IMG/VR virus record: IMGVR_UViG_3300012352_000154
Coordinates: 1 to 28,764 of that record
Length of the DNA stretch: 28,764 nt
Direction: 5' to 3' (one strand)
Source of the DNA: a virus
Lineage: Duplodnaviria; Caudoviricetes
Shown here: positions 14,439-28,723 of the stretch, piece by piece
Layout of the letters: every line of letters begins with the position of its first letter
Numbering within the stretch: the first letter of the stretch is position 1
Made by a program: the position numbers and the translations under genes
The notes under the pieces: generated by a model
What the model was told of the DNA's origin: nothing
Database searches by the model: none
What the model saw: only the letters and a program-made list of their open reading frames with translations

Positions 14439-14683
14439 GTCTTGAAAAGGTAGAAGGTTTCTCTCAGTTTAAAAAAGACACCGCCAATGGTGGTGTCATA
14501 AATACTGATAAGAGATCGTTTGAAAATTATAAAATGGCTAGAATGCGTGCATTATCCAAAGCAAATGAACAAACGCATTTGCAGGATACTGTAAATGACC
14601 TACAACATGAAATAAATAACATTAAATCAGATTTAGGTGATATTAAAAGTATTCTAACTCAACTATTAGAAAAAGGCAAATAA
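14435..14683 (+). CDS. Small hypothetical protein with C-terminal coiled coil (82 aa)
   Basis: ATGA overlap with the upstream gene and TAATG overlap with the downstream gene. It has a heptad pattern (VNDLQHEINNIKSDLGDIKSILTQLL). Confidence 0.75.
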   Translation: MSLEKVEGFSQFKKDTANGGVINTDKRSFENYKMARMRALSKANEQTHLQDTVNDLQHEINNIKSDLGDIKSILTQLLEKGK

Positions 14684-15897
14684 TGGCTGTTATTCATTTA
14701 AGACAAGATAAAGAAAGACCGTTAACCATTGAAGAGGTTGACCATAATTTTGACGCACTTAATACAGAAGTTGCGGAGAAGTTAGATACTGCTTCTTTTA
14801 CTGCACCAAACATTTTATCTATTCTTGAAGGTAATGCAGGTATCGGTTCTACGCTAGACGCTGACATGCTTCACGGTAGATATCCGAACGTGCAAACTGC
14901 CCCGAATACGGTTGTTGTTAGAGACGCTCTTTCTAACATTTATGCAAACCAGTTTTATGGCGTGCACGTCGGTGCCGTCTTAGGTAACGTAACTGGAAAC
15001 GTTGTTGGTACTGTTACTGGTAACTCAACAAACGTTGATGGTGTTGTTCAGTTAGACCACGGTGGTACTGGTGCTACAACGGCTTCTGTTGCAAGAACTA
15101 ACCTTGGTTTAGGAACTCTGGCTATTCAAAATAAAAACCTAGTTGAAATTACTGGTGGTTCTATTTCTGGTATTACTGACATAGCTGTTGAAGATGGTGG
15201 CACTGGTGCTTCTAATGCATCTTCAGCAAGAACTAATTTAGGATTAGTTATCGGTGCGGACGTTCAAGCGTACCACGCAACTCTTACTGGTTTATCTGCA
15301 ACTACTGGTGGTGGCTTTTTAGTTAGAAAGTCTGACAACACTTCAGTTGTTCGTAAATTTGTTGCTGGTAACTCTATTGAAATTTCAAACGTTGATGCCG
15401 TTGCAGGTGACGTAACAGTTGCATTGACTTTACAACCAACTGTTTCTGCAATTCAAAAGGCTGGTAATAATTTAACTGGCGATATTGGTCAATCTGCAAA
15501 TAGATTTAACGTAATTTATGGTCGTTCAACATCAGCTACTTACGCTGACTTGGCAGAAAAATATAAAACAGATAAAGAATATGCACCAGGAACTGTAATG
15601 GTAGTTGCTATGGCAGGCGATGCTGAAGCTACTGCTTGTTTCCAGACTGGTCAGCGTGTTATGGGTGTTATTTCTACGAACCCTGCATTTGTTATGAACG
15701 ATGAAGCAGAAGGTCAAGCTATTGGTCTTACTGGTCGTGTTCCAGTTTTAGTTGTTGGTCCAATCCGTAAAGGTCAAACAATTATTTCAAATCAAGACGG
15801 TAAAGCAATCGCAGGCGACGGTCAAAATGTATTTGGACAGGCTTTAGAAACTAACTTAGATGCTGGTGTTAAATTGGTGGAGTGTTTTATTAAGTGA
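14683..15897 (+). CDS. Tail fibre protein (404 aa) with a probable C-terminal intramolecular-chaperone (Peptidase_G2-like) domain
   Basis: N-terminal anchor RPLTIEEVDHNF, LDADMLHG, G(N/T)V(T/V) repeats and two GGTGA..AS.ARTNLGL fibre repeats. C-terminal ATYADLAEKY...GVISTNPAFVMN...GLTGRVPV.V.GPI.KG domain. Confidence 0.75.
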   Translation: MAVIHLRQDKERPLTIEEVDHNFDALNTEVAEKLDTASFTAPNILSILEGNAGIGSTLDADMLHGRYPNVQTAPNTVVVRDALSNIYANQFYGVHVGAVLGNVTGNVVGTVTGNSTNVDGVVQLDHGGTGATTASVARTNLGLGTLAIQNKNLVEITGGSISGITDIAVEDGGTGASNASSARTNLGLVIGADVQAYHATLTGLSATTGGGFLVRKSDNTSVVRKFVAGNSIEISNVDAVAGDVTVALTLQPTVSAIQKAGNNLTGDIGQSANRFNVIYGRSTSATYADLAEKYKTDKEYAPGTVMVVAMAGDAEATACFQTGQRVMGVISTNPAFVMNDEAEGQAIGLTGRVPVLVVGPIRKGQTIISNQDGKAIAGDGQNVFGQALETNLDAGVKLVECFIK

Positions 15898-16418
15898 TAA
15901 CATTAGATGAAGTTGTGGGATTTTTACACAACCCCTTGCCTTATGAACAAAAGCTGGTTTCAATAATAAACGATAAGGGGGAGCAAATCCCCCTTAGTCA
16001 TTATAGCGAACTATATTCATACCAAAACAAAACTGTAAAGTTAGAAGGTATGGAAAAGTATTCACCATCAATTTTTTATAGATGTTCTTGGTATAAAATA
16101 AAACACGCTCATGCTGGTGCAGTTACTTGTCATGGTTTTATAGCACATGAAAATTCTCCAAGTTTTGGTATGCATACTGACCCAGACGATGTGATTATAT
16201 ACTGCGTTGACGGAGAGAAGTCTTTAATTATAGATGATAAATATACAACCCTAAAAGTTGGTGAAGAAGTTTTTATCCCAGCGAATACCCCACATATGGC
16301 TCTAAACGAGAAAAGTGCATTTACTTTGAGTTTTGGTCTTGAGAAATTTTTAATACATAAAGCGAAAAATTATGAACTGGATGCTATACCTGAAAACAAC
16401 AGAAACTTGCAATCTTAA
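15894..16418 (+). CDS. Minimal JmjC/cupin-fold Fe(II)/2OG-type oxygenase (ROX/Cupin_4-like)
   Basis: SFGMHTDPDDVIIYCVDGEK gives an HxD motif in the context seen in YcfD/NO66-like enzymes. A distal His in GEEVFIPANTPH completes a facial triad. The GTG start overlaps the fibre stop (GTGA). Confidence 0.7.
   Translation: MITLDEVVGFLHNPLPYEQKLVSIINDKGEQIPLSHYSELYSYQNKTVKLEGMEKYSPSIFYRCSWYKIKHAHAGAVTCHGFIAHENSPSFGMHTDPDDVIIYCVDGEKSLIIDDKYTTLKVGEEVFIPANTPHMALNEKSAFTLSFGLEKFLIHKAKNYELDAIPENNRNLQS
15974..15996 (+). terminator. Perfect 9-bp stem-loop (TAAGGGGGA-GCAAA-TCCCCCTTA); possible terminator, attenuator or mRNA-stability hairpin
   Basis: Directly visible inverted repeat about 80 nt after the tail-fibre stop, inside the cupin ORF. 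It lacks a clear U-tract. Confidence 0.4.
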
Positions 16419-17409
16419 TTGCAAGCATTGTTTTACCAACGGTATTGATGGTCCAAAGATATATTGGAATCACAAAGAAGTAATTAAGTGGTTAGATAAA
16501 TTCTCAAACAATATATCTAAAAATGATACAGTTCACTGCGAATTTCATGGCGGTGAACCTTTCCTAGTTGACACCTCAGAAATGAGAAATGTTTGGTTTT
16601 TTACTAAAAATAAATTACCAAACGCAACTTGGGGTGCAACAACAAACCTCGTATTTAAAATGTATGAGCGTCACTTCGGTTTAATAGAAGATGTTTTTAA
16701 TAGACGTATTGCGACTTCTTGGGATCCTAAGATTCGTTTCGCTAATAGAAAACAATATGAATTGTGGCACAGTAATGTAAAAGAATTATTAAGAAGAAAC
16801 ATTACTGTCCGAATGAATATCAGCGTTACAACCGACACTATTAATATTGAACCAATAGTTTTACTAAGGTGGATTCGTAGATTGGGTGTTCAAGAGGTTT
16901 CTTTTGAGCGTCTAACTGGCAATGGTTCAGCAAATAAACACCCAGAGATTTTCCCCACTAATAAAGACCAAGATGCTTGGTTCTTAAAAATGCATCAACA
17001 ATCTGAAAAATATGGTGCAAGAGATTGGTTTGAAAACGATTTTCTAGAGACGGTATATTCTAAATTCGAGACTGGTTTTACAAAGGGTGGTACTTTTTGT
17101 AGAGATTGTGAAGAAAAGATATTCACACTGAACGCTGATGGCTCTATTGCAGGATGCCCAAACTCAGCACCCGAACAACAGTTCGGGCACATAAATATGG
17201 ATATAGATGAACTTATAAATAACCCTATACGGATAGAAAATATAGCGTGTGAACGCAGCAGAAATCCACTTTGTTACAGTTGCGAGGTTTTTAGTTACTG
17301 TGGTGGTGATTGTCATCAGTTATCATGGCAAGATAATGTTTGCGGTGCACCTAAAAGTCTAATGAAACAACTAAGTAAAAAGAAAGTATGGATTCTTAAG
17401 GAACTATAA
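16372..17409 (+). CDS. Radical SAM/SPASM-domain protein 1 (345 aa)
   Basis: CNLNCKHC (CxxxCxxC), FHGGEP, and C-terminal CRDC...GCP...CYSCEVFSYCGGDC...C (Cx2Cx5Cx3C SPASM pattern). Confidence 0.92.
   Translation: MNWMLYLKTTETCNLNCKHCFTNGIDGPKIYWNHKEVIKWLDKFSNNISKNDTVHCEFHGGEPFLVDTSEMRNVWFFTKNKLPNATWGATTNLVFKMYERHFGLIEDVFNRRIATSWDPKIRFANRKQYELWHSNVKELLRRNITVRMNISVTTDTINIEPIVLLRWIRRLGVQEVSFERLTGNGSANKHPEIFPTNKDQDAWFLKMHQQSEKYGARDWFENDFLETVYSKFETGFTKGGTFCRDCEEKIFTLNADGSIAGCPNSAPEQQFGHINMDIDELINNPIRIENIACERSRNPLCYSCEVFSYCGGDCHQLSWQDNVCGAPKSLMKQLSKKKVWILKEL
17214..17221 (+). promoter_or_regulatory. Canonical T4 late promoter TATAAATA inside rSAM1, upstream of the 192-aa gene
   Basis: Exact consensus about 190 nt before ATG 17409. 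A second variant, CATAAATA (17190-17197), is preceded by the hairpin CCCGAAC-AACA-GTTCGGG (17170-17187). Confidence 0.5.
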
Positions 17410-17987
17410 TGGCATTAACCGATCCAATTACAAGACAGAATATTGTAGACCGTTTTGCAGAATATGTAAGAGATTCAGCCAACCCAGGAATTTCTTGGGG
17501 AACTAACGCATGGCCATTTGGTGAATTTGGTGGGTATGCGTATCTTTTTGGTGGAGATACTGGTGGTAAAGGTATTCAAATTGATGGTAATAGTATCGGT
17601 ACAAATGCCGATGGTGATATTACTGCTCAGAATATTTACGACACATTAATCACTGAGACATACAGATATACTAAAATTAGAACAATGCGAGCTGTATTGT
17701 TCGTAGACGGTGGTGGCGGTAATACAGGTTCTCGACCAACTCCTGGTGTTGTATATGACCAAACTGCTATCGCTTACATGAATGATAATTATTTACAAGG
17801 TGTTAGTGCTGGTAGAGATAACGTTTATGCTGGTAACATTGTTACTGCAGGTGGCTTAGAAGTTATGTTTGCGAATATGCGTGCTGCATATAATGGAGCA
17901 AGGGCTGTCAAGGCTGGGGATTACCAAGTGAACGTTTGTCACGCTTCTTGTCATTCATCATGTCATAGTTCTAGAGGAAGAAGATAA
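17409..17987 (+). CDS. Virion-like protein with C-terminal (CHxS)3-RGRR tail; putative substrate of the radical SAM cassette (192 aa)
   Basis: Gly/Ala/Thr/Asn-rich body with no Cys or His, then CHASCHSSCHSSRGRR at residues 177-192. It is coupled by TAATG overlaps to both neighbours. The CDS is secure, while the substrate role is inferred. Confidence 0.7.
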   Translation: MALTDPITRQNIVDRFAEYVRDSANPGISWGTNAWPFGEFGGYAYLFGGDTGGKGIQIDGNSIGTNADGDITAQNIYDTLITETYRYTKIRTMRAVLFVDGGGGNTGSRPTPGVVYDQTAIAYMNDNYLQGVSAGRDNVYAGNIVTAGGLEVMFANMRAAYNGARAVKAGDYQVNVCHASCHSSCHSSRGRR

Positions 17988-18703
17988 TGAATATTGTTGA
18001 AACTATTGCGCCAATTTCTATTGATAATTTGAAAAAGTATTTTACAGATAAAAGTACATTTTTTGTTCTAAATTATAAAGACAGTTCTTTAAAAGGTGCA
18101 AAACTTTTAACATATCTTTCAAATTTAGATGTCCCATGTGATATCAACGTTACTGGTTGTGAAGAACAAGAAGTTTATGATTTGATAAGAGATTATTTAA
18201 ATACAACTATGTTGGTAAATGTACCATCATTAGAAAAAGCTGTAAATCATATCTTACATCAAACAAAGGGTTTAATTCCTTTAAACGATGAACAGTTTAT
18301 TTTAGACAATAAAGAGATATTGTCGATTTGGGTTTCTAAATTAGAAAGTTTATCACTATACAACATGTATATTGTTGGTGGTGAATCTTTTAAAGAATTT
18401 GCAGAAAAATTTGAAAAAGACGATACCGATGAACTTGTTGGTATCAATTTTATCAGCTTATTAAAGAATGAATATTTTTATTCGTTTTACGAAAACACTA
18501 ACCCTGATAATCTAAAATTTTATACTCGCTATTTTGATGATTATATGTTCAGAGGTAAGAACATGTATTCGTATTGGGCTAATGAGAATAATCCATTATT
18601 TTTATTGACTTACGGAATTGCTGAAGGAATGATAACAGGTGAAACTTATATTTCAGCTAAACAAAAAACGATAGAGGAATTAGCAAATGCTACACCTGTT
18701 TAA
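17987..18703 (+). CDS. Hypothetical protein of the rSAM cassette (238 aa)
   Basis: Long ORF with TAATG coupling to the 192-aa gene and no motif I can recognise. Confidence 0.75.
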   Translation: MNIVETIAPISIDNLKKYFTDKSTFFVLNYKDSSLKGAKLLTYLSNLDVPCDINVTGCEEQEVYDLIRDYLNTTMLVNVPSLEKAVNHILHQTKGLIPLNDEQFILDNKEILSIWVSKLESLSLYNMYIVGGESFKEFAEKFEKDDTDELVGINFISLLKNEYFYSFYENTNPDNLKFYTRYFDDYMFRGKNMYSYWANENNPLFLLTYGIAEGMITGETYISAKQKTIEELANATPV

Positions 18704-19781
18704 CAAAGTATATTTAGAGTTTGATGATAAAATTGAAATTAATTTCGACAGAGTTGTAATCTCTGAGCGATATGGCGTTTCAATGTACAAAGAATTAGAT
18801 AAAGTCGCATATGGCGAGTTAATCACATATAGCCAATCTTATGACGATATTGTTAAAGATGACTTCGCTGGATTCATCGCTTCAATAAAAGATTTCGCTA
18901 ATAACTCAAAAAAGAAAGTTATAATCTACTGCGATAAGTCATCTTATAAAAAGTTTATGGCTCAGTGGTTTAAGGTTATTCTTCCAAATTTAGATTTTGA
19001 AAGTTTCAAAAAGATTGTAGACTTTACAATCTATAATCAACGTATAGTTTCGAACACTCAACTATCTTCCGTTTACAGTGTAAATTTAAATTCTCTATGG
19101 GAAGGTGTTGGTGATATTAAAGAAGTTTGGGAGCAAGCTGAAGAAATTGACCCAGTACTTTTTGAAAACATGGAATTAAACTATTCCTATGAGTTTTTAT
19201 TTGCAACATATTTGTCTGGCGATTCTTCTAGAAAAGAAGAACTGCGCAAGACTCTACATATGTTCTTAAGACGTTGGTTAAAAGAAATGTTTACTGATAA
19301 CCGTCAAATGGTCTTATTGAATATCACTAATCATAAATTTTTAAGTACATTTAATATTGATCCAGAATTAGTTGATATTACTTTATTAGATCCTCTTGCT
19401 CCAATCCCACAACTAGAGTCTTATGCCGATGATGAGATTTGGGAACGTGACCAGAATCAATATGGTGAATGTAAACTTGAAGGTTTGAGCGAAGAAAAAG
19501 CAATAAAATTAAAAGATACTCTACTATCAATATTTGGTCAGTTTGAGGGTATGCAAACTAATCAAACTGTTTTTGGAACTCTTGATTATGTGACTGCTGC
19601 ATGCGCTGACAAATTATCTGACGAAGATATGGATAGTATTATTGACTATATTACTAGAGAACCGTTCGACACAGCAATTGTTCCAAGATTTGATTTCCAG
19701 AATGTAAACTTCCCACTTTTACAATTCTTCTTAGCAGAAAAATTTAACGAAAGAGATCTATCGAAATATAGATTACTATAA
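18687..19781 (+). CDS. Hypothetical acidic protein of the rSAM cassette (364 aa)
   Basis: Long ORF with an upstream GAGG Shine-Dalgarno, overlapping the previous gene. KKVIIYCD weakly resembles a phosphatase/rhodanese-type strand but there is no CX5R. Confidence 0.75.
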   Translation: MLHLFNKVYLEFDDKIEINFDRVVISERYGVSMYKELDKVAYGELITYSQSYDDIVKDDFAGFIASIKDFANNSKKKVIIYCDKSSYKKFMAQWFKVILPNLDFESFKKIVDFTIYNQRIVSNTQLSSVYSVNLNSLWEGVGDIKEVWEQAEEIDPVLFENMELNYSYEFLFATYLSGDSSRKEELRKTLHMFLRRWLKEMFTDNRQMVLLNITNHKFLSTFNIDPELVDITLLDPLAPIPQLESYADDEIWERDQNQYGECKLEGLSEEKAIKLKDTLLSIFGQFEGMQTNQTVFGTLDYVTAACADKLSDEDMDSIIDYITREPFDTAIVPRFDFQNVNFPLLQFFLAEKFNERDLSKYRLL

Positions 19782-19782
19782 C

Positions 19783-20847
19783 ATGCGTGAATTTATTATT
19801 GATCGCAAACGTGACCCTGAACAAGAATATACGTTACATCTATTTGAGTATTGTAATTTAAGATGTTCGTTTTGCTGGCAAGACCACGAGAATAGAATTG
19901 GTATTAATACGGTTTCAGAAAAACTGAAACCGATTGAAGAGTTTCTAAAAACAGAACCTCGCGAATCTGTTGTATTTAATGCAATGGGTGGCGAGGTTTT
20001 TGCACCTGAGATATTTGATACTCATCTGCTTTTTGAATACAAAGCGTTAATTGCTGGGATTAGAACCCTTGCTGTTCGTTACAATAAAAAAGTAAAGATT
20101 AACTGGGTCACCAACTTAGTAACAAATAAGATTGCCCTTATAGAATCTTTATTGTCATATTCTGAATCTGTTGGTGTAGAATCAAATCTTGTTACTTCTT
20201 ATGACCCACGTGGTCGTTTTAATGTAAATGATTTAATGGTGTTCAAAAAGAATATGGAGTATTTCGGTAAACGAATTACTTGTATTAGCATGCTTTTGAG
20301 TTCCCCAAACATTGACTATATTTTAAAAGATAAAGACAATTATTTCAAAAAGTTATACAATGAAGGATATTATATCTATTTTGATTATTACATGCCAGAT
20401 GAATCCGCTGAGTTTCAAGCACCCAGCGATATGCAACTGAGAGATGTTTTTAAACATTTAATAGATAATTACCCAAAGGTTCATCCAATAGCTGATTGGA
20501 TTGAGAATGATAAAAACTATGCATCTTGTCGTTCAAGTAAGTTAATACTTGCAGACGGTACAATGTGTCAATGTGGTAATCTAGTACAGGATGAAAAGGT
20601 TATTAAGTTTTATTCTTCTAAGATTGAAAAGATGGATAACTCTGCAATCGAAAATAGTTTCTTAGAAAAATATGATTGCGTTTCTTGCGAGTATCTAGAG
20701 CGATGCAGTTTTAGTTGTTTTATGCAACATGATTATAAGTTCAGGGAAGAATTACATGAATGTGTCTACAAAATTACGCACCGATATATCGACAATGTAC
20801 GATTACTCAGAAGAACCAACTATTCTTCCACCAAAAACGCCATCTGA
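19783..20847 (+). CDS. Radical SAM/SPASM-like protein 2 (354 aa)
   Basis: CNLRCSFC, MGGEVF, and C-terminal C...MCQC...CVSCEYLERCSFSC...C (Cx2Cx5Cx3C). Confidence 0.9.
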   Translation: MREFIIDRKRDPEQEYTLHLFEYCNLRCSFCWQDHENRIGINTVSEKLKPIEEFLKTEPRESVVFNAMGGEVFAPEIFDTHLLFEYKALIAGIRTLAVRYNKKVKINWVTNLVTNKIALIESLLSYSESVGVESNLVTSYDPRGRFNVNDLMVFKKNMEYFGKRITCISMLLSSPNIDYILKDKDNYFKKLYNEGYYIYFDYYMPDESAEFQAPSDMQLRDVFKHLIDNYPKVHPIADWIENDKNYASCRSSKLILADGTMCQCGNLVQDEKVIKFYSSKIEKMDNSAIENSFLEKYDCVSCEYLERCSFSCFMQHDYKFREELHECVYKITHRYIDNVRLLRRTNYSSTKNAI

Positions 20848-21337
20848 TGTTGAAGTTCAATTAGATAATTTACGTGTAACATATCCAGTAGTTCCTAGAA
20901 TTAGCGAAAGAAGAGCATACTTTTTTATATGGTTTAGCGATAAAAATATAGATCCAGACTTATACCATGATAGTCAAAGAAGTAAATATGATGTTCAATG
21001 GGTTCATTGTAAAAATAAAGAACATATAGAAAAAGGTGTTGCGATGATTCATATCTACGACGATGAGGTTATCATAGGAACTATAAAAACCGCAGGATAT
21101 ATGAATCGAAAAAGTAACATTGAAGTTAGAGCATTCATTCGTAAAATGTGGGGTGACATAATTTTAATGTTCGGTGATAAAAGTATTATTTGCCCTTCTG
21201 GGTCATACTTAGAGTGTCTACATTTAGTTATGAATCAAAGAAGAATAACACATGAACCGTATCACCGTGAAGTTATGAAACAGTTTGGATTTAAACGTGA
21301 TGGTGATTATTGGGTGAGGTATGGATCTAATAATTAA
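20795..21337 (+). CDS. Hypothetical protein, possibly a degenerate GNAT-like fold (~180 aa; start uncertain: 20729, 20756 or 20795)
   Basis: The ORF fills the gap between rSAM2 and rSAM3 and overlaps both. C-terminal YHREVMKQFGFKR resembles GNAT motif B (Y.k.GF), which is weak evidence. Confidence 0.6.
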   Translation: MYDYSEEPTILPPKTPSDVEVQLDNLRVTYPVVPRISERRAYFFIWFSDKNIDPDLYHDSQRSKYDVQWVHCKNKEHIEKGVAMIHIYDDEVIIGTIKTAGYMNRKSNIEVRAFIRKMWGDIILMFGDKSIICPSGSYLECLHLVMNQRRITHEPYHREVMKQFGFKRDGDYWVRYGSNN

Positions 21338-22379
21338 ACCAACCGAAAAGTGCAACTTTAAATGTACATTTTGTTCTTCCACTCATATCACTGAAGATAA
21401 GAGTCAAGAACTAGACCATCAATACATCTTTGATTTCTTAAAACGATTCCCAGAAACAAATACAATTATCGTTAATGGCGGTGACCCTTTAATGATGCCT
21501 CCAGAATATTACTGGAAGATTATTCGCCATCTAGACGAAATAGGTTCACACGCTAGTATTTCGATAGGTTCACACGCTAGTATTTCGTTTACAAGTAATC
21601 TATGGCCATTTTATAAAAACCCAGAGAAATGGGTTGACCTTTTCAACCACCAAAGAATGGGTATCACTACATCATTCCAATATGGTGGCGGGAGATTAAA
21701 GGGTGATTTATCAGAATTCACTGAAGAAGATTTTTGGGATGTTTCAGACGCTATGTTTAAACACTGCGGTTATAGACCTGACTTTATTTCTGTAATCACA
21801 GAGGAAAACGAACATCTTGCAATTAAAAATGTAGAGCTTGCAAAACGAATGGGTGTTGAATGTAAATTAAATTATGCGTTCTCATCTGGACCACCTGTTA
21901 AGTTTAAAAACATTATTATGGGTCAAGAAGGTAAACCATATCTTCTAGCCGATATTTACGAGATATACATAGAAATATGGAAGCGTGGTTTAGCACCCTG
22001 GGAATTTAATACCAAACAGATGATGAAACGTCTAAAGGGTAAAGCTACTTGTTGCCCTCAGAATAGAGAATGTGATGGTGGTATTCGTACACTACAACCT
22101 TCTGGAGATTATTATTCTTGTGGAGCATTTGGAGACGACAGACAGTTTCCGATAGATTTTAAAACAGAGATGGTTGGAGAAAAAGTATTTCCCATCCGCC
22201 ACGTAATGGAATTACAAACTATGAATGGAGAAGGTTGTTATACCTGTCCAATGTTCGAGATTTGTAATGGGTGTAAAAAGACTATTAAAGACCATAAGGA
22301 TTATGGTTTGAATGAGGTTCATTGCCGTAAAATGAAAACTCTAGCTGAGGATATTATTCGTGCTAACGAAACTAATTGA
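21321..22379 (+). CDS. Radical SAM/SPASM-domain protein 3 (352 aa)
   Basis: IIKPTEKCNFKCTFC, NGGDPL, and C-terminal CCP...EC...YYSCG...CYTCPMFEICNGC...HC. GAGG Shine-Dalgarno just upstream. Confidence 0.92.
   Translation: MDLIIKPTEKCNFKCTFCSSTHITEDKSQELDHQYIFDFLKRFPETNTIIVNGGDPLMMPPEYYWKIIRHLDEIGSHASISIGSHASISFTSNLWPFYKNPEKWVDLFNHQRMGITTSFQYGGGRLKGDLSEFTEEDFWDVSDAMFKHCGYRPDFISVITEENEHLAIKNVELAKRMGVECKLNYAFSSGPPVKFKNIIMGQEGKPYLLADIYEIYIEIWKRGLAPWEFNTKQMMKRLKGKATCCPQNRECDGGIRTLQPSGDYYSCGAFGDDRQFPIDFKTEMVGEKVFPIRHVMELQTMNGEGCYTCPMFEICNGCKKTIKDHKDYGLNEVHCRKMKTLAEDIIRANETN
21540..21587 (+). repeat. Perfect 24-bp tandem duplication (ATAGGTTCACACGCTAGTATTTCG x2), in frame, encoding IGSHASIS twice
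   Basis: Directly visible at 21540-21563 and 21564-21587. Confidence 0.95.
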
Positions 22380-23418
22380 TTTTAATTTAGAAGTTACTAA
22401 TGGTTGTCAATTTAATTGCACTGGTTGCAATGTTGATAAAGAGGGTAACTCATATCCAAGCGAAGAAGACTTTGATCGCATGGAAATTCTTATTGATGAC
22501 CTAAACAATAATGGTTTCCCAGCTATGAATTTAGCACTTGGTCCAACAGATATTATGACAAGTATTAATAGAGATAAAATCCTATCTAGCGAAAGGATAA
22601 AATCTTTATCTAAAAAGTTCATGAAGACTGCTATCAACTGCGCATTCTTAGACCCATTTGACGAAAACTATATTAGGCTTGGTAAACAATTAAACTGGTT
22701 GCTTGCTGGTAAAATGGTAAAATTTGTAATACCATTTGAAGCGTACCATATAGATAATAAACAGTATATTGATAGAATTAGACGTCGTAGAGATTTAGTA
22801 TTAAGTCAAATGCCAGACGTAACTCATACCAAAACTTATCTTATTGTAAATTATGAAACAACTTCTATTTACGATAAAGAGAACGATAAAAATATTACAG
22901 AACAGCTAGTTTTAAAGGTATATAATTCTCCACTTCTTGAAGACTTTGCAGTTGATTTAGTATTAGGTCATGCAAGGGCAAACCTTCGCGAAGAAGATAA
23001 TTCTACAAAGTTTATAGATTCTGCAAAGAGATTAAAAAGTATAATGGCATCAGCCAGAGAGAAATATGGTAACTCTGTAGATATCGCTGAAGTAAAAGAT
23101 TCAGAAGGTAGAGATTGGGATATATTTTATAAAGCTGGTAAGTTATATCTAACGCCATTTATTCTAGAAGGTTTAGCCAACTTCGATGAGTTGTTTGAAA
23201 TTAAAAACGACTGGACGTTATCTGGTGTTTATGAAAGTTATAATAGTGGATTTGTAGAACAATTAGAATTTGCTATGCAAGCTAAAGAATGTAAATCTTG
23301 TCAGTTTGTTGCACAATGTGCCGAACGAGGTGTTCATACTTTAATGAAGATTATGAATACTGAAGATTGCATCAGTCCAGCAAAAGATGTTGCGAAAAGT
23401 ATAAACTGGCATTTATGA
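22360..23418 (+). CDS. Divergent radical SAM-like protein 4 (352 aa)
   Basis: CQFNCTGC (CxxxCxxC without the usual aromatic residue) and GGE replaced by LGPTD. C-terminal CKSCQFVAQC...C. GTG start with upstream GAGG. Confidence 0.75.
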   Translation: MLTKLIDFNLEVTNGCQFNCTGCNVDKEGNSYPSEEDFDRMEILIDDLNNNGFPAMNLALGPTDIMTSINRDKILSSERIKSLSKKFMKTAINCAFLDPFDENYIRLGKQLNWLLAGKMVKFVIPFEAYHIDNKQYIDRIRRRRDLVLSQMPDVTHTKTYLIVNYETTSIYDKENDKNITEQLVLKVYNSPLLEDFAVDLVLGHARANLREEDNSTKFIDSAKRLKSIMASAREKYGNSVDIAEVKDSEGRDWDIFYKAGKLYLTPFILEGLANFDELFEIKNDWTLSGVYESYNSGFVEQLEFAMQAKECKSCQFVAQCAERGVHTLMKIMNTEDCISPAKDVAKSINWHL

Positions 23419-24335
23419 TTCTATCTATCAACCCTACATATTATTGTAATTTTCGTTGCGATTTTTGCTACCTTACAGAGTCGCAATTATCTGATAGAAA
23501 ATTATTAAAGTTATCTAGATTAGAAGAAATGTTGGGAGAGATAACATCATCCGTGAAAATTGACATGGTTGATATTTATGGTGGTGAGGTTGGATTAATC
23601 TGTAAAGATTATTGGAATAAACTAATTGAAATATTACAGATATATGGAATTGAAGACATCAATCTGATAACAAACCTTTCGGCTGTTAATGATATTACAA
23701 CAGACCCAAGAGTTTATACTTCGGTTTCTTATGATTTTGAAGCTAGAGAAGAACACGAAAGAGTTTACAGAAATATGGCTCTTTTAAATAAACCGTTTTC
23801 TATTCTTATGCTCGCATCTCCAAAGTTCTTAGAGTTAGATACTGTTGAAATGATTGAGTCGTTAAACTTATTACCCAATCTAGAGTCAGTAGAGATAAAA
23901 CCGTATAGTTCTAATCAGTCAAACACCCACACCGTATTATATACTGAGTATGAAAATAAAGTCAAATCTTTTTTACAGTATTCTAATAAGAAGTTTGCAT
24001 TTGTAAATCAACACCTTTTGGACACTGTAGTTTCCAAAGAAAGAAATAGTTTTTCAGACGACCATATCTATATAACACCTCATGGTAAGTATGCAGTGTT
24101 GGAATTTGATTTAAACGATAATGAATTCTTTTTGGAATACGATAACTTAGACCAATATTGGGATTGGTGTAAGAAAGAAAAGGATCGTGTAAGTAAGAAT
24201 AAATATTGTTCGAACTGCGAGTATTATGGGAACTGTTTATCTGAGCATCTTAGAGAAGTTAAGAGTTTAGATAATAGTTGTAATGGTTTTAAACATTTAA
24301 TTGACTGGTATAAAAATGAACGAGTGGCGAGTTAG
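23415..24335 (+). CDS. Radical SAM protein 5 with C-terminal Cys cluster (306 aa)
   Basis: Start moved to ATG 23415 (ATGA overlap with the rSAM4 stop). CNFRCDFC, YGGEVG, and C-terminal CSNCEYYGNCLSEH...SC. Confidence 0.88.
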   Translation: MILSINPTYYCNFRCDFCYLTESQLSDRKLLKLSRLEEMLGEITSSVKIDMVDIYGGEVGLICKDYWNKLIEILQIYGIEDINLITNLSAVNDITTDPRVYTSVSYDFEAREEHERVYRNMALLNKPFSILMLASPKFLELDTVEMIESLNLLPNLESVEIKPYSSNQSNTHTVLYTEYENKVKSFLQYSNKKFAFVNQHLLDTVVSKERNSFSDDHIYITPHGKYAVLEFDLNDNEFFLEYDNLDQYWDWCKKEKDRVSKNKYCSNCEYYGNCLSEHLREVKSLDNSCNGFKHLIDWYKNERVAS

Positions 24336-24711
24336 GCAAGAAGTATATCATCGTTTGAGAGAAGAAAACCCAGACGATTTAAATAATATTGATATACAGA
24401 TGACGGAAAACGTTGTCGAAGAAGCTATTGATTATTTTAAAACCAAAAATAAAGGTTGGATTTATCCAGCCAAAAGTTACATGGTTGGAATATGTTACAG
24501 TAAGTGGTTATCTGAAAGGTTTGGGGATACACCCCTGAGTTACTTAGATAACCCAAACTTATTATATTCCAATGATCCATTCTTTGTACCATATAGCGAA
24601 GATAAAGAAACATATGATAAAATCCTAGAAACTGTTACTTGGGATTTTGACAAACAACAAGGTATGTGTCCTGATGTTTGGGTATATTTTATGGATGAGT
24701 TTTTACTATGA
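24316..24711 (+). CDS. Hypothetical protein of the rSAM cassette (131 aa)
   Basis: ATG 24316 overlaps the end of rSAM5, and there is an ATGA overlap with the next gene. No recognisable motif. Confidence 0.7.
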   Translation: MNEWRVRQEVYHRLREENPDDLNNIDIQMTENVVEEAIDYFKTKNKGWIYPAKSYMVGICYSKWLSERFGDTPLSYLDNPNLLYSNDPFFVPYSEDKETYDKILETVTWDFDKQQGMCPDVWVYFMDEFLL

Positions 24712-25283
24712 TACAACATTTATGGTCAACACCTTTCTCTAAAACTAAAATGGGTTCAGAGATTTCAAGTAGTGTTGCAAACTTATTATTTACAGAATAT
24801 GATTTAATGTCTCCACCGAACGATTTTGGTTCTAGGAATATACTGGATAATAAGTCTGAAGTTATGCAGGAGTTTAAAGAAACTGTCGTCATTCCTTCTT
24901 TTAATTCTTTTCTTAGAAACACCATAGGAAAGGAAATATCAGATTGGAAAGGTGGTTATAGACTTAATGGTTGGGTAGCTGGTAAAGGAAATGATTATAC
25001 CATAAACTACCATAACCATAGTGGTGCTCAACTATCTGCAGTTTTCTATATTATGTGCGAAGAATACAATTCTGGTGGAGAGATATCGTTTACTGACCCT
25101 CGACAGAATGCCAATAGAGGTTATGATAATAACTTCTCAGAGTGGTTTAAGCACCTAAGATTTACACCAGAAACTGGGGATATTGTGGTATTTCCCAGCT
25201 TTCTTTACCATTTTGTGTCCACATATCAGGGAAATATAAGGTTGGCTATCCCCGTAGACCTCTTTCTATTTGCAAATAGCTGA
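24708..25283 (+). CDS. Putative 2OG-Fe(II) oxygenase (TIGR02466 / 2OG-FeII_Oxy_5-like, 191 aa)
   Basis: LWSTPF N-terminus, HNHSGAQLSAVFYI, GGEISFTDPR, PETGDIVVFPSFLYHFV and terminal R.AI match the pattern of this phage-abundant DSBH family. Confidence 0.82.
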   Translation: MIQHLWSTPFSKTKMGSEISSSVANLLFTEYDLMSPPNDFGSRNILDNKSEVMQEFKETVVIPSFNSFLRNTIGKEISDWKGGYRLNGWVAGKGNDYTINYHNHSGAQLSAVFYIMCEEYNSGGEISFTDPRQNANRGYDNNFSEWFKHLRFTPETGDIVVFPSFLYHFVSTYQGNIRLAIPVDLFLFANS

Positions 25284-25293
25284 TGCTAAATAA

Positions 25294-25301
25294 TATAAAT
25301 A
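25294..25301 (+). promoter_or_regulatory. Canonical T4 late promoter TATAAATA (with a tandem variant GCTAAATA at 25285-25292)
   Basis: Exact consensus in the intergenic gap 36 nt upstream of the tail-fibre ATG at 25338. Confidence 0.8.
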
Positions 25302-25337: not shown

Positions 25338-27578
25338 ATGGCTCTTATTACCACACGTGTCACTAATGCATCCGTTGCGGGTGTAGGCACTATAACATGT
25401 TTAACGTCAAGCCCAACAATCACTGGGGTTGGTACTTCATTCTTAACTGCAGTAATTATTGGTCAACAGATTACCAATAGCGGAGGAACCTTAATTGGTA
25501 CTGTTCTTACTGTAGATTCTAATACGCAGATTACACTAGTTTCCAATGCAGCCGTGGCAGTTACTGCTGATGCATTTAACGTTGTTTCTACTGGTATTAC
25601 CACAAAAGGTTCTCCTTTAAGTAATTCTGAAATTGATGCTAACTTCATTAATTTGAACAACGCAGTTACTGCTGGTGCAAACTCTTCAGTAAATAACGTA
25701 GCAAATACTCTAGTTAAGCGTGGTCCAAGTGGAGAATTTTCCGCAGGTGTAGCGACCCTTACTGGTGCCAACGTTGGTGGAACAACTGTTCCTACCGCAA
25801 ATGCTTCTCAAGCACAAATGGAAACTGGTACAGATACTACTACCAGATATATGAGCCCAAATAACATCAAACAAGCTATTGATGTTCTTGCTATGCAAAC
25901 TGTTGGTTCAGTAACAAAAGATATGACTGGATTCGAGTCAATTTCTGGATCATCAATATCTTATGTTGACGCAACTAGAGTTTTCACTTTAGCACCTTCT
26001 GGTACTACTGCAACTTCTAAGACTTTTAATGTAACTGCTTCTGGTGGTAAGTTTTATATTGATGGAGTTATGCAAGCAACTCTAGAACTTATAGAGGGTG
26101 GTACATATACTTTTGATCAATCAGATGCATCTAATACTGGTCACCCATTAAGATTTTCTATTACACCTAATGGAACTCATGGTGGTGGTGTTGAATACAC
26201 AACCAACGTGACAACTAGCGGAACACCAGGACAAGCTGGTGCTTATACCAGAATTGTTGTTGCCGCAAGTGCACCTACATTATACTACTACTGTGTAAAC
26301 CACTCAGGTATGGGTGGAACTGCAACAACAGTTCAAGGTTACTTTGTTTGGTATAGAGGTAAGAGAACTTTCATGACTACCGCTCTTACTACAACTTTAG
26401 CTGCAACTCCTGGTAATCACTATATTGGTATTAACCCAACAACTATGACATTAGAAGTATTCAATACTGCTTCTGATACTCTTTTCTCTGATACAATTTT
26501 AGTTGCCAATATTTACCTAGATACACTTACATCTAAAGCACTCATCGTTGGTGATGAAAGACACTCATCTTCTAGAGATACTTCTTGGCATATCTCTCAA
26601 CATAATAATATGGGTGCTATTTGGAGATCGGGTGGCGCACTAACATTTACAGCAAATAATGATTCTGCGGTTGGTCTGTCTTTCACTACTCCAATTTTCT
26701 TAGCTGATGAAGACTTGGTTCACACAATTAACCATGCTTCTTCTCCAAACGGTTATTTTCAACAGGTACTAAACGGCACTGCTAATATTCAAACATTGTA
26801 TTTAAATGGTACAACTTACTCTTTGAATAAAGAATCCACAGTACCTTGGGTTGCTGGAACTGCAACAGCAGCCATTAACACAGTTACATCTGGTAATGGT
26901 TCTTTAGCAGATGCTGGTGAAGGTAAGTTCTTAAACTATTGGATTGTTGCAACTAACGATAAGAACAGCCCTGTTAAAGCTATTATGGGTCGTGTTTCTT
27001 ATAACTCAGTGACTGAGTCGATGAACGAGCAATTCCAAGATTATGGATTACCATTCTTAGAATTTGCACCAATGTATAAAGTTACTTTACAAACTAGTGG
27101 CTCTTATACTGGTAACGTTGCTAAAGTTAGAATTGTAAGTGTAAGAACCGTTTCAATGAGACAGTCTGCGGTTAATCAAACATTTAAAGAACCTGCTCAT
27201 AGCGAATTATCTAATTTAGGTTCTGACGATCACAGCCAATATGTTCATATTAGCAATGCTAGAACTATTTCTGCTAATCACACATTCAGTGGTAACAATA
27301 CGTTCCAAGGAACACAAGGTTTTAATAACATAACAGTTGCTGGCGTAGGTTCTCATATGGTACCAACTGCAGCTTCTACATATGACCTCGGATCTACTAC
27401 GATGGCATGGCGTCACGTTTACACTTCTGACTTGCACTTATCTAACGAGAAACATGAATCTGGAAACGTTGTTGACGGAACTCGTGGTAACTGGACAGTA
27501 CAAGAGGGCGCAGATGAATTGTATATCATTAATAACAAAAACGGTAAGAGATATAAGTTCTCTTTAGAGGAAGTCTAA
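25338..27578 (+). CDS. Mosaic tail fibre protein (746 aa) containing a cupredoxin-like module
   Basis: KGSPLSNSEIDANF anchor, ASQAQMETGTD...MSP fibre motif, HPLRF...YYYCVNHSGMGG module and HSELSNLGSDDHSQY motif. C-terminal YDLGS...WRHVYTSDLHLSNE...VDGTRGNWTVQEG domain is typical of aquatic T4-like fibres. It sits behind a late promoter. Confidence 0.8.
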   Translation: MALITTRVTNASVAGVGTITCLTSSPTITGVGTSFLTAVIIGQQITNSGGTLIGTVLTVDSNTQITLVSNAAVAVTADAFNVVSTGITTKGSPLSNSEIDANFINLNNAVTAGANSSVNNVANTLVKRGPSGEFSAGVATLTGANVGGTTVPTANASQAQMETGTDTTTRYMSPNNIKQAIDVLAMQTVGSVTKDMTGFESISGSSISYVDATRVFTLAPSGTTATSKTFNVTASGGKFYIDGVMQATLELIEGGTYTFDQSDASNTGHPLRFSITPNGTHGGGVEYTTNVTTSGTPGQAGAYTRIVVAASAPTLYYYCVNHSGMGGTATTVQGYFVWYRGKRTFMTTALTTTLAATPGNHYIGINPTTMTLEVFNTASDTLFSDTILVANIYLDTLTSKALIVGDERHSSSRDTSWHISQHNNMGAIWRSGGALTFTANNDSAVGLSFTTPIFLADEDLVHTINHASSPNGYFQQVLNGTANIQTLYLNGTTYSLNKESTVPWVAGTATAAINTVTSGNGSLADAGEGKFLNYWIVATNDKNSPVKAIMGRVSYNSVTESMNEQFQDYGLPFLEFAPMYKVTLQTSGSYTGNVAKVRIVSVRTVSMRQSAVNQTFKEPAHSELSNLGSDDHSQYVHISNARTISANHTFSGNNTFQGTQGFNNITVAGVGSHMVPTAASTYDLGSTTMAWRHVYTSDLHLSNEKHESGNVVDGTRGNWTVQEGADELYIINNKNGKRYKFSLEEV

Positions 27579-28723
27579 TGGCATACTATGTAAATAACGT
27601 TCTAGTCAAAGAAGTCCCGTCTACACCAGACGCATCTCGTGGTGCGTTTTTAGTTTCAATTGGTTCAGGTGGTTATAACTGGGCATATATGGGAACTTCA
27701 ACTGCTGGTATTGCAATTGACAATAGCCAGTGGAGATATCGTTCAATCTATACGCACGGTTATGTAGCTTGCGGTTACAAGGGTTCAAATCCATGGCGTT
27801 CTGTAAATAAAACTTGGCACCCAACAGATACTACTTTATATTGCGGTGAACAAATTATGAATACCATGGCATACACAAATGGTTTCTATTCAGATTATAA
27901 CGGTTACATTATTGCCAACGGTGGTATGTCTGGTTCTGGTTCAGTGGTTGCTTCTTATGGCTTACATAACGGAACTTGTCGTATGTACTCTGGTGATGGA
28001 TATTCATCTTCTGGCGTGACGTATGGATATCAAGGTAATGACCCAAAGAACGAAGGTATCTCTTATGGTACTGCTGGATATGGTTCTCACGTTGGTGGTA
28101 TGAGAATGCAAACAAACCGTGTTGACCCTCCAGCTACCCAAGACATTAAAGGTCAATCTGGTTGGTTTAATGGCGGTGGTTCTTCTGACACTTCTCGTTT
28201 ACACTTCCCAACTGAGGTTATGTATGCTGGTTGGGATTCTGGTTCTGATGGCATCGGTGATGCAGCTGGCGGGGAATTTAGAGGTTACTTTGCATGGGCT
28301 GGAACATATCGTTACGTTACATGGTCTAACTCAACATGGTCTGGTACAGGAGCATGGGGTAACTGGGGTAGAGACGGACATTGTAAAAACCAGTCAACTA
28401 AATGGGGTCATCATTACATCGGTACTGGTAATAACGTTACAATAGGTAAGTCTAAATTTAGAGATTCAGATGGTGCAACATTATCTAATTTTGATAAAAT
28501 TAGAGCGTATGGTGAAGACAACGTTGAGGAAGGTCAAGACTGGGGATATATCATGGGTCACTATGATAATCAACAGAATAATCATACAATTAAACAATCG
28601 CATTCAACTGACACTGAGGTAACAATGGGTGCAGCGTGTATGCCTAAGGGACATTATGGTTTATCTTCTGGTGCATGCTCAACAGGAGCTGCAACTGTAA
28701 CTGCCACTGGCGTAGGAATGTAA
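27578..28723 (+). CDS. Gly/Tyr/Trp-rich virion protein, probably beta-rich (possible fibre-associated adhesin), 381 aa
   Basis: TAATG coupling to the fibre gene. Repeated GY..GG/GW..GG kelch-like units (GYVACGY, GYIIANGG, GWFNGGG, GYFAW, GYIMGHY). Confidence 0.6.
   Translation: MAYYVNNVLVKEVPSTPDASRGAFLVSIGSGGYNWAYMGTSTAGIAIDNSQWRYRSIYTHGYVACGYKGSNPWRSVNKTWHPTDTTLYCGEQIMNTMAYTNGFYSDYNGYIIANGGMSGSGSVVASYGLHNGTCRMYSGDGYSSSGVTYGYQGNDPKNEGISYGTAGYGSHVGGMRMQTNRVDPPATQDIKGQSGWFNGGGSSDTSRLHFPTEVMYAGWDSGSDGIGDAAGGEFRGYFAWAGTYRYVTWSNSTWSGTGAWGNWGRDGHCKNQSTKWGHHYIGTGNNVTIGKSKFRDSDGATLSNFDKIRAYGEDNVEEGQDWGYIMGHYDNQQNNHTIKQSHSTDTEVTMGAACMPKGHYGLSSGACSTGAATVTATGVGM

Follow-up and report, generated by a model that had tools for sequence, protein, structure and literature searches.

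We have analysed the virus record IMGVR_UViG_3300012352_000154 of IMG/VR (positions 1 to 28,764; this whole stretch of 28,764 nt is the window referred to below), and propose that 12 of its genes form a kit in which radical S-adenosylmethionine (rSAM) enzymes tailor the end of a small protein that becomes part of the virus particle. The predicted substrate, here called the tailed protein, has 192 residues, the last 16 of which form a tail of Cys-His-x-Ser repeats and arginines, and its gene lies among five genes for rSAM enzymes (rSAM1 to rSAM5, in gene order), two oxygenase genes and several accessory genes. For the joint reading, that the tail is the substrate of the kit and that the protein carrying it belongs to the virion, we estimate a probability of about 0.6; we infer the modification itself by analogy with known maturation systems. 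If correct, the reading would describe radical-SAM tailoring of a virus-particle protein, unreported in the literature that we found and an undescribed way to finish a virus particle, and would add a new group of at least four enzyme families that work on one 16-residue core.

The Cys-His tail and its enzymes

As a preliminary description of this DNA had reported, the product of 17409-17987 ends in three C-H-x-S repeats and RGRR, with cysteines at C177, C181 and C185 and with H-x-S occurring three times in residues 178-188. No Pfam, NCBIfam or PHROG family matches the protein. A profile search with it gathered 811 clusters at 50% identity; among the 150 profile matches listed, 138 have the complete tail and the remaining 12 carry variant Cys-His repeats. 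In an alignment of 120 sequences all 8 invariant columns, the three cysteines among them, lie inside the last 16 residues, and identity over the body drops to 17-25%. The AlphaFold model has a mean pLDDT of 89, with 54-55 in the last two blocks, and given this low-confidence end on a confident body we regard the tail as exposed and unstructured. Because all invariant columns fall in the tail, the bodies diverge and the tail is unstructured in the model, we read it as the substrate of the kit, which we hold to be very probable. Among 8,606 six-frame open reading frames (ORFs) of the fetched loci the pattern CH..CH..CH occurs 100 times, in all 100 cases as a C-terminal CH..CH..CH..R.RR, so we do not take the tail for a chance occurrence. 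Its conservation is at the protein level, since its serines are encoded by both TCN and AGY; a DNA or RNA element as the cause of the invariance was ruled out, codons varying freely.

The residue two positions after each histidine (His+2) is narrowly restricted. In a census of 337 full tails, from 351 distinct proteins chosen by homology or motif, the 1011 positions are occupied by Ser (903), Asn (88), Ala (17), Asp (2) and Gln (1), and never by Gly, Thr, Val or Ile (0/1011); at the position directly after His in the same tails, Gly is found 157 times and Thr 56 times. The lack of these four residues at His+2 fits cross-links from His to an unbranched Cβ.

Compared with solved structures, the tailed protein gave a best E of 0.12 in a profile search, no Foldseek match at E 0.001 and a best Z of 3.6 with VIA, and this absence of a match does not show a new fold. 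The fold of the body recurs in three proteins of 504-660 aa from Myoviridae sp. ctijX18 in BFVD (A0A8S5USJ7, A0A8S5USJ8 and A0A8S5USV2), and one 453-aa sequence (P0152) is a fusion in which the tailed protein comes after PF21722 (E 7e-11), a glycine-rich domain of a type found in phage receptor-binding proteins. Natural deviants of the tail include L119:6956-7492, P0159, P0190, P0225, P0252 and P0267; the kinds seen are a two-Cys short tail, a His replacing a Cys, and a glycine-rich end instead of Arg-x-Arg-Arg. Such variants would be useful for assigning which enzyme does what.

Tail gene and enzymes accompany each other, whichever is used for retrieval. In all 26 loci retrieved with the tailed protein, rSAM1 lies directly upstream or adjacent. 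The tail motif alone retrieved 120 loci, of which 80 have flanks and every one of these 80 contains an rSAM gene, the 40 short loci being uninformative on this point. When rSAM3 was the query, the best 80 of 169 loci contained the tail gene in 60 cases, and the other 20 stop before its expected place. The preliminary description had held that rSAM cassettes commonly lacking a CHxS-tailed protein would speak against it; there is no such cassette among the 60 informative rSAM loci.

The five enzymes all have the CxxxCxxC motif, beginning at residue 13, 24, 11, 16 and 27 of rSAM1 to rSAM5, respectively, so close to the N-terminus that no space remains for an N-terminal recognition domain. C-terminal Cys clusters had been attributed to all five, and a CxxC-x5-C cluster is indeed present in 5/5, with the fuller SPASM-like set confined to rSAM1-3 and four or five C-terminal cysteines in rSAM4 and rSAM5. 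Only rSAM1 passes the cut-off of the SPASM model TIGR04085 (30.2 vs 27 bits). Matches to PF04055 range from E 3e-9 to 5e-3, the gathering score being exceeded by rSAM3 alone (37.8 vs 29.5), and four enzymes match phrog_1802 (radical SAM; E 4e-51 for rSAM2, 1e-38 for rSAM5), with rSAM4 matching phrog_31457. In a tree of 62 rSAM sequences, drawn from 13 loci, the window and one plasmid and excluding rSAM4, the enzymes rSAM1, 2, 3 and 5 form separate clades, each spanning phages and bacteria, which points to four separate conserved jobs. Paralogues of rSAM4 number 0 to 5 per locus. Homologues of rSAM3 in cultured jumbo phages are 59-62% identical to it. The rSAM3 gene contains a perfect 24-nt tandem duplication (window 21540-21587) that adds 8 residues; the span concerned is 25-26 residues long in 91 homologous ORFs, and the duplication is either recent or an assembly slip.

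Both predicted oxygenases retain their metal ligands. The cupin exceeds the thresholds of Cupin_2 (35.5 vs 27.2) and JmjC_2 (24.1 vs 22), with H94-x-D96...H134 kept, and the second enzyme, a 2-oxoglutarate (2OG)-Fe(II) oxygenase, exceeds that of PF13759 (46.2 vs 27 bits), with H102-x-H104...H168 kept; their homologues occur in 54 (many of them cut short) and 28, respectively, of 80 tail loci. The accessory proteins are harder to place. The 238-aa protein has a confident model with no Foldseek match, a best VIA Z of 5.0 over 55 residues and an Atlas lead of 0.90 based on only 142 common features. Pfam, NCBIfam, PDB and Atlas gave no assignment for the 364-aa protein, and NCBIfam, Pfam and PHROG no family match for the variable 202-aa protein. 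The 136-aa protein, which has neither a match to HxsD (TIGR03976) nor a structural or family assignment, is a possible partner protein, by analogy with HxsD.

Evidence for a place in the virus particle

The suggestion in the preliminary description that the cassette matures a virion or tail component gains support, in part, from two sides. One is the particle table (Table S5 of PMC6102473) of a polyethylene glycol (PEG)-purified preparation of phage Atu_ph07. The tailed protein is homologous to gp170 of this phage (body-only profile E 1.2e-7; fold match E 2.3e-6), which is listed there with 8 peptides and 35% coverage and whose identity we verified by its mass, 31.89 kDa; the tail of gp170 falls within a tryptic peptide of 30 residues. 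Also in the particle proteome is gp176, homologous to the 404-aa fibre protein upstream of the cassette. The table does not contain gp164-169, 171 and 172, gp169 being the homologue of the 238-aa accessory protein; thus the substrate homologue is listed and the enzymes are not. Though of 31.9 kDa, gp170 is smeared over bands 1-9 of the 13 gel bands and has its maximum in the topmost, band 1; of the 31 proteins between 25 and 40 kDa that are supported by at least four peptides, a hand count finds no other with a maximum there. Our search of the openly accessible literature found no public virion proteome of RSL2 or RSF1.

The other side is transcriptional. The consensus TATAAATA, which we take to be a T4-type late promoter, occurs just twice on the plus strand of the window, once at 17214, 195 nt before the tailed gene, and once at 25294. 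Of 134 distinct regions upstream of tail genes, 80 have it at a distance of at most 300 nt, compared with 0-16% for 14 other gene types over the same distance, and no copy was seen on the opposite strand within 300 nt of tail genes. At the motif site within rSAM1, the Ile codon is ATA in 53 of 54 cases, against 54% elsewhere. Coding constraint was ruled out as the source of the motif, as synonymous sites are fixed and the motif stands at other distances too. Judged from these sequences, the motif would fit a structural gene expressed above its enzymes. From both lines, membership of the tailed protein in the virion appears likely, nearly as much so as the substrate role of its tail.

Where in the particle might such a protein sit? 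In 64 of 80 loci the tail gene is preceded by a homologue of the chaperone domain of the 404-aa fibre protein, which makes this fibre the most constant structural neighbour, and the homologue abuts the tail gene in 24 loci where the enzymes have moved elsewhere. The domain matches Peptidase_G2 (PF11962) at E 2e-4 and 21.2 bits, under the cut-off of 25. We regard a location on or next to this self-cleaving fibre as an even chance. The 746-aa fibre downstream is a boundary and no conserved part of the kit, for the downstream neighbours differ between loci; right behind it (window 27578-28723) is the gene of a 381-aa Gly/Trp-rich protein (phrog_1417), a candidate adhesin.

Proposed chemistry, related systems and alternatives

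We propose the following model. Late in infection, in the cytoplasm of the infected cell, rSAM1, 2, 3 and 5, aided by the accessory proteins and rSAM4, would abstract hydrogen from the Cβ of His+2 and close His-to-Cβ rings in the manner of triceptides. Some of the enzymes probably form thioethers from the Cys thiols, hydroxylation being the probable task of the cupin and 2OG oxygenase. The scheme would require neither a protease nor an exporter, since the modified tail would remain attached to its folded protein and exit with the virion; as had been noted from the sequence, protease and transporter families are indeed missing from the 12 gene products (zero matches in NCBIfam and Pfam model scans). 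The matured protein would then join the particle as the likely partner of the neighbouring self-cleaving fibre, and could serve as a tip or lock, rigid, cationic and possibly able to bind metal, that grips the Gram-negative surface. The parts of this model differ in strength: that His-Cβ cross-links are among the changes, a proposal made by analogy, we put at slightly under even, and a role of the modified tail in host attachment is more tentative still.

The preliminary description knew of no characterised system of this sort, a statement that does not hold, as the HXS system, with an rSAM-dependent +8 Da on an HxS repeat, is a characterised analogue. According to the accessible part of PMC13128918, rSAM enzymes are required there to mature a folded HxS-repeat protein, HxsA, which acquires +8 Da on SHRSS (+C, -4H) by a chemistry that is left unresolved and that the authors could not reconstitute; matured HxsA binds DNA and delays phage DNA entry, and the protein needs periplasmic export. 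The two systems share several rSAM enzymes and small partners beside a folded protein with basic His-x-Ser repeats, and a product that remains a protein. In contrast to HxsA, the phage repeats contain Cys and are C-terminal, and the protein has no signal peptide or peptidoglycan-binding domain (no hydrophobic N-terminus; no Pfam domain). The phage kit has four to nine rSAM-like genes plus oxygenases, whereas HXS has two rSAMs, and it sits in a virion module rather than a host defence operon. Membership in HXS fails at the level of curated models: HxsC (TIGR03977) reaches 27.7 vs 267.9 bits, HxsB (TIGR03978, cut-off 370) does not appear among the matches listed, the lowest of which has about 19 bits, and neither HxsA (TIGR03979) nor HxsD (TIGR03976) matches the tailed or accessory proteins at E 0.01.

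Triceptides offer a parallel for the proposed rings. As described in PMC11499958, the rings of His-type triceptides join His C2 to the Cβ of the third residue of an H-x-x motif. The His-type systems HaaB, HtkB and YhhB described there likewise combine an rSAM/SPASM enzyme without an N-terminal recognition domain with repeated H-x-x motifs, and in the tails counted here the third residue (S, N, A, D or Q) has an available Cβ at all 1011 positions. Unlike triceptide precursors, the phage substrate is a folded protein of about 190 aa, with no short leader-core precursor and no protease or transporter, and the maturase models are far from reached (YhhB 27.1 vs 445, AmcB 22.3 vs 425, FxsB 20.1 vs 370 and GrrM 21.8 vs 310 bits). 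A likeness to PapB, DynA and the CXXX-repeat system (TIGR04115) lies in their being the top models of rSAM1 and rSAM3, in a Cys at every fourth residue and in the SPASM-type Cys pattern. The best models of rSAM1 are PapB and DynA (52.6 and 41.5 bits), both far under their cut-offs of 340 and 450, and that of rSAM3 is DynA (40.5 bits vs 450); with SCIFF at 21.2 vs 425 and TIGR04115 at 23 vs 350 bits, assignment to the CXXX or ranthipeptide class fails, and in contrast to ranthipeptides and dynobactin no released peptide is evident in the phage system. PapB is associated with a Cys-to-Asp motif and DynA with a His-to-Tyr link. On sequence grounds, then, the kit would work like HXS and triceptide maturation yet belongs to neither.

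The setting also recalls adhesins of the type of gp38 from T2 and S16, which sit on chaperone-cleaved gp37 fibres. Like these and the Bdellovibrio S74 MAT fibres, the kit ties the gene of a small protein to a trimeric fibre ending in a self-cleaving chaperone; for the tailed protein, no match to a solved adhesin was found by sequence or fold. To our knowledge, no rSAM tailoring is known for gp38-type adhesins or Bdellovibrio S74 fibres.

Several observations weigh against the proposed reading. All five enzymes stay below the curated thresholds of known peptide maturases (best 52.6 vs 340 bits), which leaves motif and analogy as the footing of the proposed chemistry. Close relatives recur within the locus sets, and the sets share members, so the counts cannot be read as independent events. 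Of 80 loci, 14 with at least 3 kb upstream, including those of chimallivirus-type phages, have no fibre homologue. The lack of a hydrophobic N-terminus leaves export in bacteria unexplained. In the Atu_ph07 preparation gp321 and gp616 (32-36 kDa; 2 and 1 peptides) peak in band 1 as well, and the loading buffer as written contains no reductant, so that disulfides alone could explain the band. Purification was by PEG only, a RecA-like protein and ribonucleotide reductase being present too, and the giant structural protein gp180 is missing from the table, so the absence of the enzymes proves little.

The (CHxS)3 repeat could also be invariant because the tail, left unmodified, binds a metal or an Fe-S cluster. 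Its three Cys and three His would be good ligands, and it might act as a cluster donor, a scaffold or a structural site, with the enzymes working on the fibre, on host lipids or lipopolysaccharide, or on a small molecule. Glycosyltransferase-like and B12-rSAM genes near some bacterial copies would suit such targets, as would the position of rSAM cassettes among the variable parts of the pelagimyophage host-recognition island (PMC7029224, accessible portion). We find this quite unlikely: ligation explains neither why Gly, Thr, Val and Ile are missing at His+2 nor the terminal Arg-x-Arg-Arg, the tailed protein and not the enzymes is listed in the particle table and has its own promoter motif, and fibre bodies vary widely, whereas the enzymes are conserved. 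In an unlikely alternative, though less so, the product of the kit would be, instead of small rings, a reactive group made from a tail Cys or Ser (a formylglycine-type aldehyde or a dehydro residue) or a protein-derived cofactor, giving a covalent lock to the protein itself, the fibre or the host surface. Sulfatase maturases target C/S-x-P-x-R, a motif whose C-x-x-x-R spacing recurs in C185 and R189; the anaerobic sulfatase maturase model (anSME, TIGR03942) is among the top matches of rSAM1 (35.3 bits) and rSAM3 (32.1 bits), gp170 stands at the gel top and smears, and the HXS change (+C, -4H) is no plain cross-link (PMC13128918, accessible part). The anSME scores are, however, one tenth of the cut-off (35.3 vs 349.45 bits for rSAM1), the tail lacks the Pro of the motif, its place being taken by G, S or N, the Ala, Asn and Asp found at His+2 are unable to yield formylglycine, and a non-reducing buffer can account for the gel.

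Could the tailed protein instead be an effector of the infection stage, a phage HXS that binds DNA or the envelope and blocks superinfection or counters host HXS defence? Its HxS repeats and Arg resemble those of HxsA, a protein that once matured binds DNA and slows the entry of phage DNA (PMC13128918), the plasmid version is hydrophobic at its N-terminus, bacteria own the kit, and the proteome was PEG-purified only. The phage proteins nevertheless have no signal-like N-terminus, whereas HxsA requires periplasmic export, no Hxs model is reached, and the late promoter motif and the position in a fibre module suit a structural gene; we give this role the same low odds as the metal site. Least probable by far is a role of the enzymes in a pathway to a modified DNA base or a cofactor, with the tailed gene as a bystander, an outcome that the preliminary description had itself named as damaging. 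Weak matches to QueE, MoaA and viperin and the two dihydrofolate reductase genes inside the RSF1 cassette are in its favour, and a PADLOC scan gave just weak motif-level viperin and 2OG matches. The former matches are limited to the N-terminal motif and far from their thresholds (QueE 16.2 vs 260.1, MoaA 27.5 vs 284.05, viperin 29.9 vs 180 bits), the kit sits in a virion module, and in the informative loci kit and tail gene accompany each other without exception, from whichever side they are retrieved.

Literature searches, with most subscription journals outside their scope, found no description of an rSAM-tail system. The genes are mentioned as annotations or unexplained cassettes in the accessible portions of PMC11898562, PMC8066314, PMC7029224 and bioRxiv 10.64898/2026.03.27.714766; the main text of Iyer et al. 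2021 on jumbo phages contains none of the words 'radical', 'rSAM' or 'SPASM', and the portions of PMC5468394, PMC12801897 and PMC10135246 that were available have nothing on the system. Tailoring of a virion tail would, if true, give a function to the rSAM blocks left unexplained in the jumbo-phage and megaplasmid papers (PMC11898562; bioRxiv 10.64898/2026.03.27.714766; accessible text). The phage kit would be a second route to HxS-repeat chemistry, testable directly in cultured phages, and attachment of several biocontrol phages may then rely on chemistry invisible to standard proteomics searches.

Gene order and distribution

The window covers a T4-like baseplate and tail region with baseplate wedge genes, a gene for a 2438-aa structural protein and then fibre genes, by PHROG matches (Table 1). 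As described before, 12 plus-strand ORFs occupy 15894-25283 between the genes of the 404-aa and 746-aa fibre proteins, each junction overlapping or with a gap of at most 1 nt when longest-ORF starts are used; the real starts of the ORFs at 20729, 23367 and 24301 possibly lie further in.

Table 1. Cassette features and bordering genes in the window
Feature	Position	Strand	Basis
Fibre protein, 404 aa, C-terminal intramolecular-chaperone (self-cleaving) domain ~277-404	14683..15897	+	PHROG tail-fibre; PF11962
JmjC-like cupin, predicted Fe(II) oxygenase	15894..16418	+	Cupin_2, JmjC_2
rSAM1, radical SAM/SPASM enzyme	16372..17409	+	CxxxCxxC; TIGR04085 passed
Presumed T4-type late promoter consensus, within rSAM1 gene	17214..17221	+	sequence match
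Tailed protein, 192 aa, predicted substrate and virion component	17409..17987	+	body ~1-176 plus exposed tail
(Cys-His-x-Ser)3-Arg-Gly-Arg-Arg tail, residues 177-192, predicted modification site	17937..17984	+	invariance
Accessory protein, conserved, 238 aa; after tailed gene in standard layout	17987..18703	+	phrog_20767
Accessory protein, conserved, 364 aa	18687..19781	+	homologue in 46/80 tail loci (blastp)
rSAM2, radical SAM with SPASM-like Cys set	19783..20847	+	CxxxCxxC; phrog_1802
Accessory protein, variable, ~200 aa	20729..21337	+	in 21/80 tail loci
rSAM3, most conserved enzyme	21321..22379	+	PF04055 passed
rSAM4, divergent radical-SAM-like protein, reduced Cys set	22360..23418	+	CxxxCxxC; phrog_31457
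rSAM5, radical SAM, reduced auxiliary Cys set	23367..24335	+	CxxxCxxC; phrog_1802
Small accessory protein, conserved, 136 aa, usually at or near end of rSAM5	24301..24711	+	phrog_20737; 52/80 tail loci
2OG-Fe(II) oxygenase, copy number variable	24708..25283	+	PF13759; phrog_81
Second late promoter consensus, in 54-nt gap closing cassette	25294..25301	+	sequence match
Tail-fibre-like protein, 746 aa, downstream	25338..27578	+	PHROG tail-fibre matches

Among 50,697 cultured-phage records, rSAM1 and rSAM3 match the same 15. The tailed protein itself gave zero tblastn matches to cultured phages, and its homologues there were reached via rSAM1 instead: RSF1, Atu_ph07, Phosso and pPa_SNUABM_DT01, the four inspected, all have the cupin and rSAM1 followed by a gene with the same tail on a divergent body. 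Jumbo phages of the phiKZ-related and of the T4-like kind are both among the carriers, so the kit travels as one module. In a second layout two shorter tailed proteins stand straight behind the fibre, with up to five rSAM4 paralogues. The cassette of Ralstonia phage RSF1 is interrupted by an HNH gene and two dihydrofolate reductase genes (L027:20500-21789).

The kit had been described as phage-encoded, and it is not confined to phages: it also occurs in genomes of predatory bacteria and, in a remoter form, on megaplasmids. Bacterial genome bins yielded nine loci, six of them bacterial by context (labelled Bacteriovoracaceae in four cases, Pseudobdellovibrio in one and Flavobacteriaceae in one), of which one adjoins prs and rplY. 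The tail gene is present in five of the six, and the sixth is cut. Three further loci in Rhodobacteraceae and Rickettsiales bins (L111, L112 and L113) have T4-like structural genes, are seemingly mis-binned phage contigs and were left out of the bacterial count. Peptidase_S74 fibre genes with pilin-like starts lie near the kit in 5/6 bacterial loci, no S74 candidate having been tested in the remaining one (L115). On plasmids rSAM3 matches 134 records, at about 24% identity among the matches listed. Two plasmid loci were inspected, both on Pseudomonas megaplasmids, and have six rSAM genes and a 124-aa protein behind pilin genes; in L122 this protein has a four-repeat Cys-His tail on an unrelated body and a hydrophobic start, whereas the phage and five bacterial tailed proteins have no strongly hydrophobic N-terminus.

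A common thread of these sites, a pattern seen in gene neighbourhoods and not a mechanism, would be an appendage touching Gram-negative cells; in Bdellovibrio S74 fibres act as prey adhesins (PMC10769870, accessible part). One may speculate that a device of ancient origin is common to phages, predatory bacteria and conjugative megaplasmids: a RiPP-like Cys-His peptide, cross-linked by radical SAM enzymes and presented on a surface fibre or pilus for gripping Gram-negative cells. It would act as a chemical warhead, be it a rigid β-strand mimic, metal-bridging or a covalent adhesive, and its receptor-binding determinant would be written by enzymes and not by gene sequence. We consider this idea as a whole rather unlikely.

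Some neighbouring genes of the bacterial kits deserve mention. A gene for a protein of about 200-220 aa of no known family adjoins the pilin-S74 fibre genes in four loci (L116:15597-16265, L117:2762-3391, L118:3712-4326 and L119:2384-2983), and at least three of these four proteins share a terminal short motif. Bacterial kits also contain a B12-binding rSAM-like gene and GT8-like glycosyltransferase genes (L118:14105-15832, L115:12328-13881 and L116:11906-13426), and many phage kits have unassigned ORFs of 500-590 aa at places similar to those of the bacterial B12-rSAM and GT8 genes.

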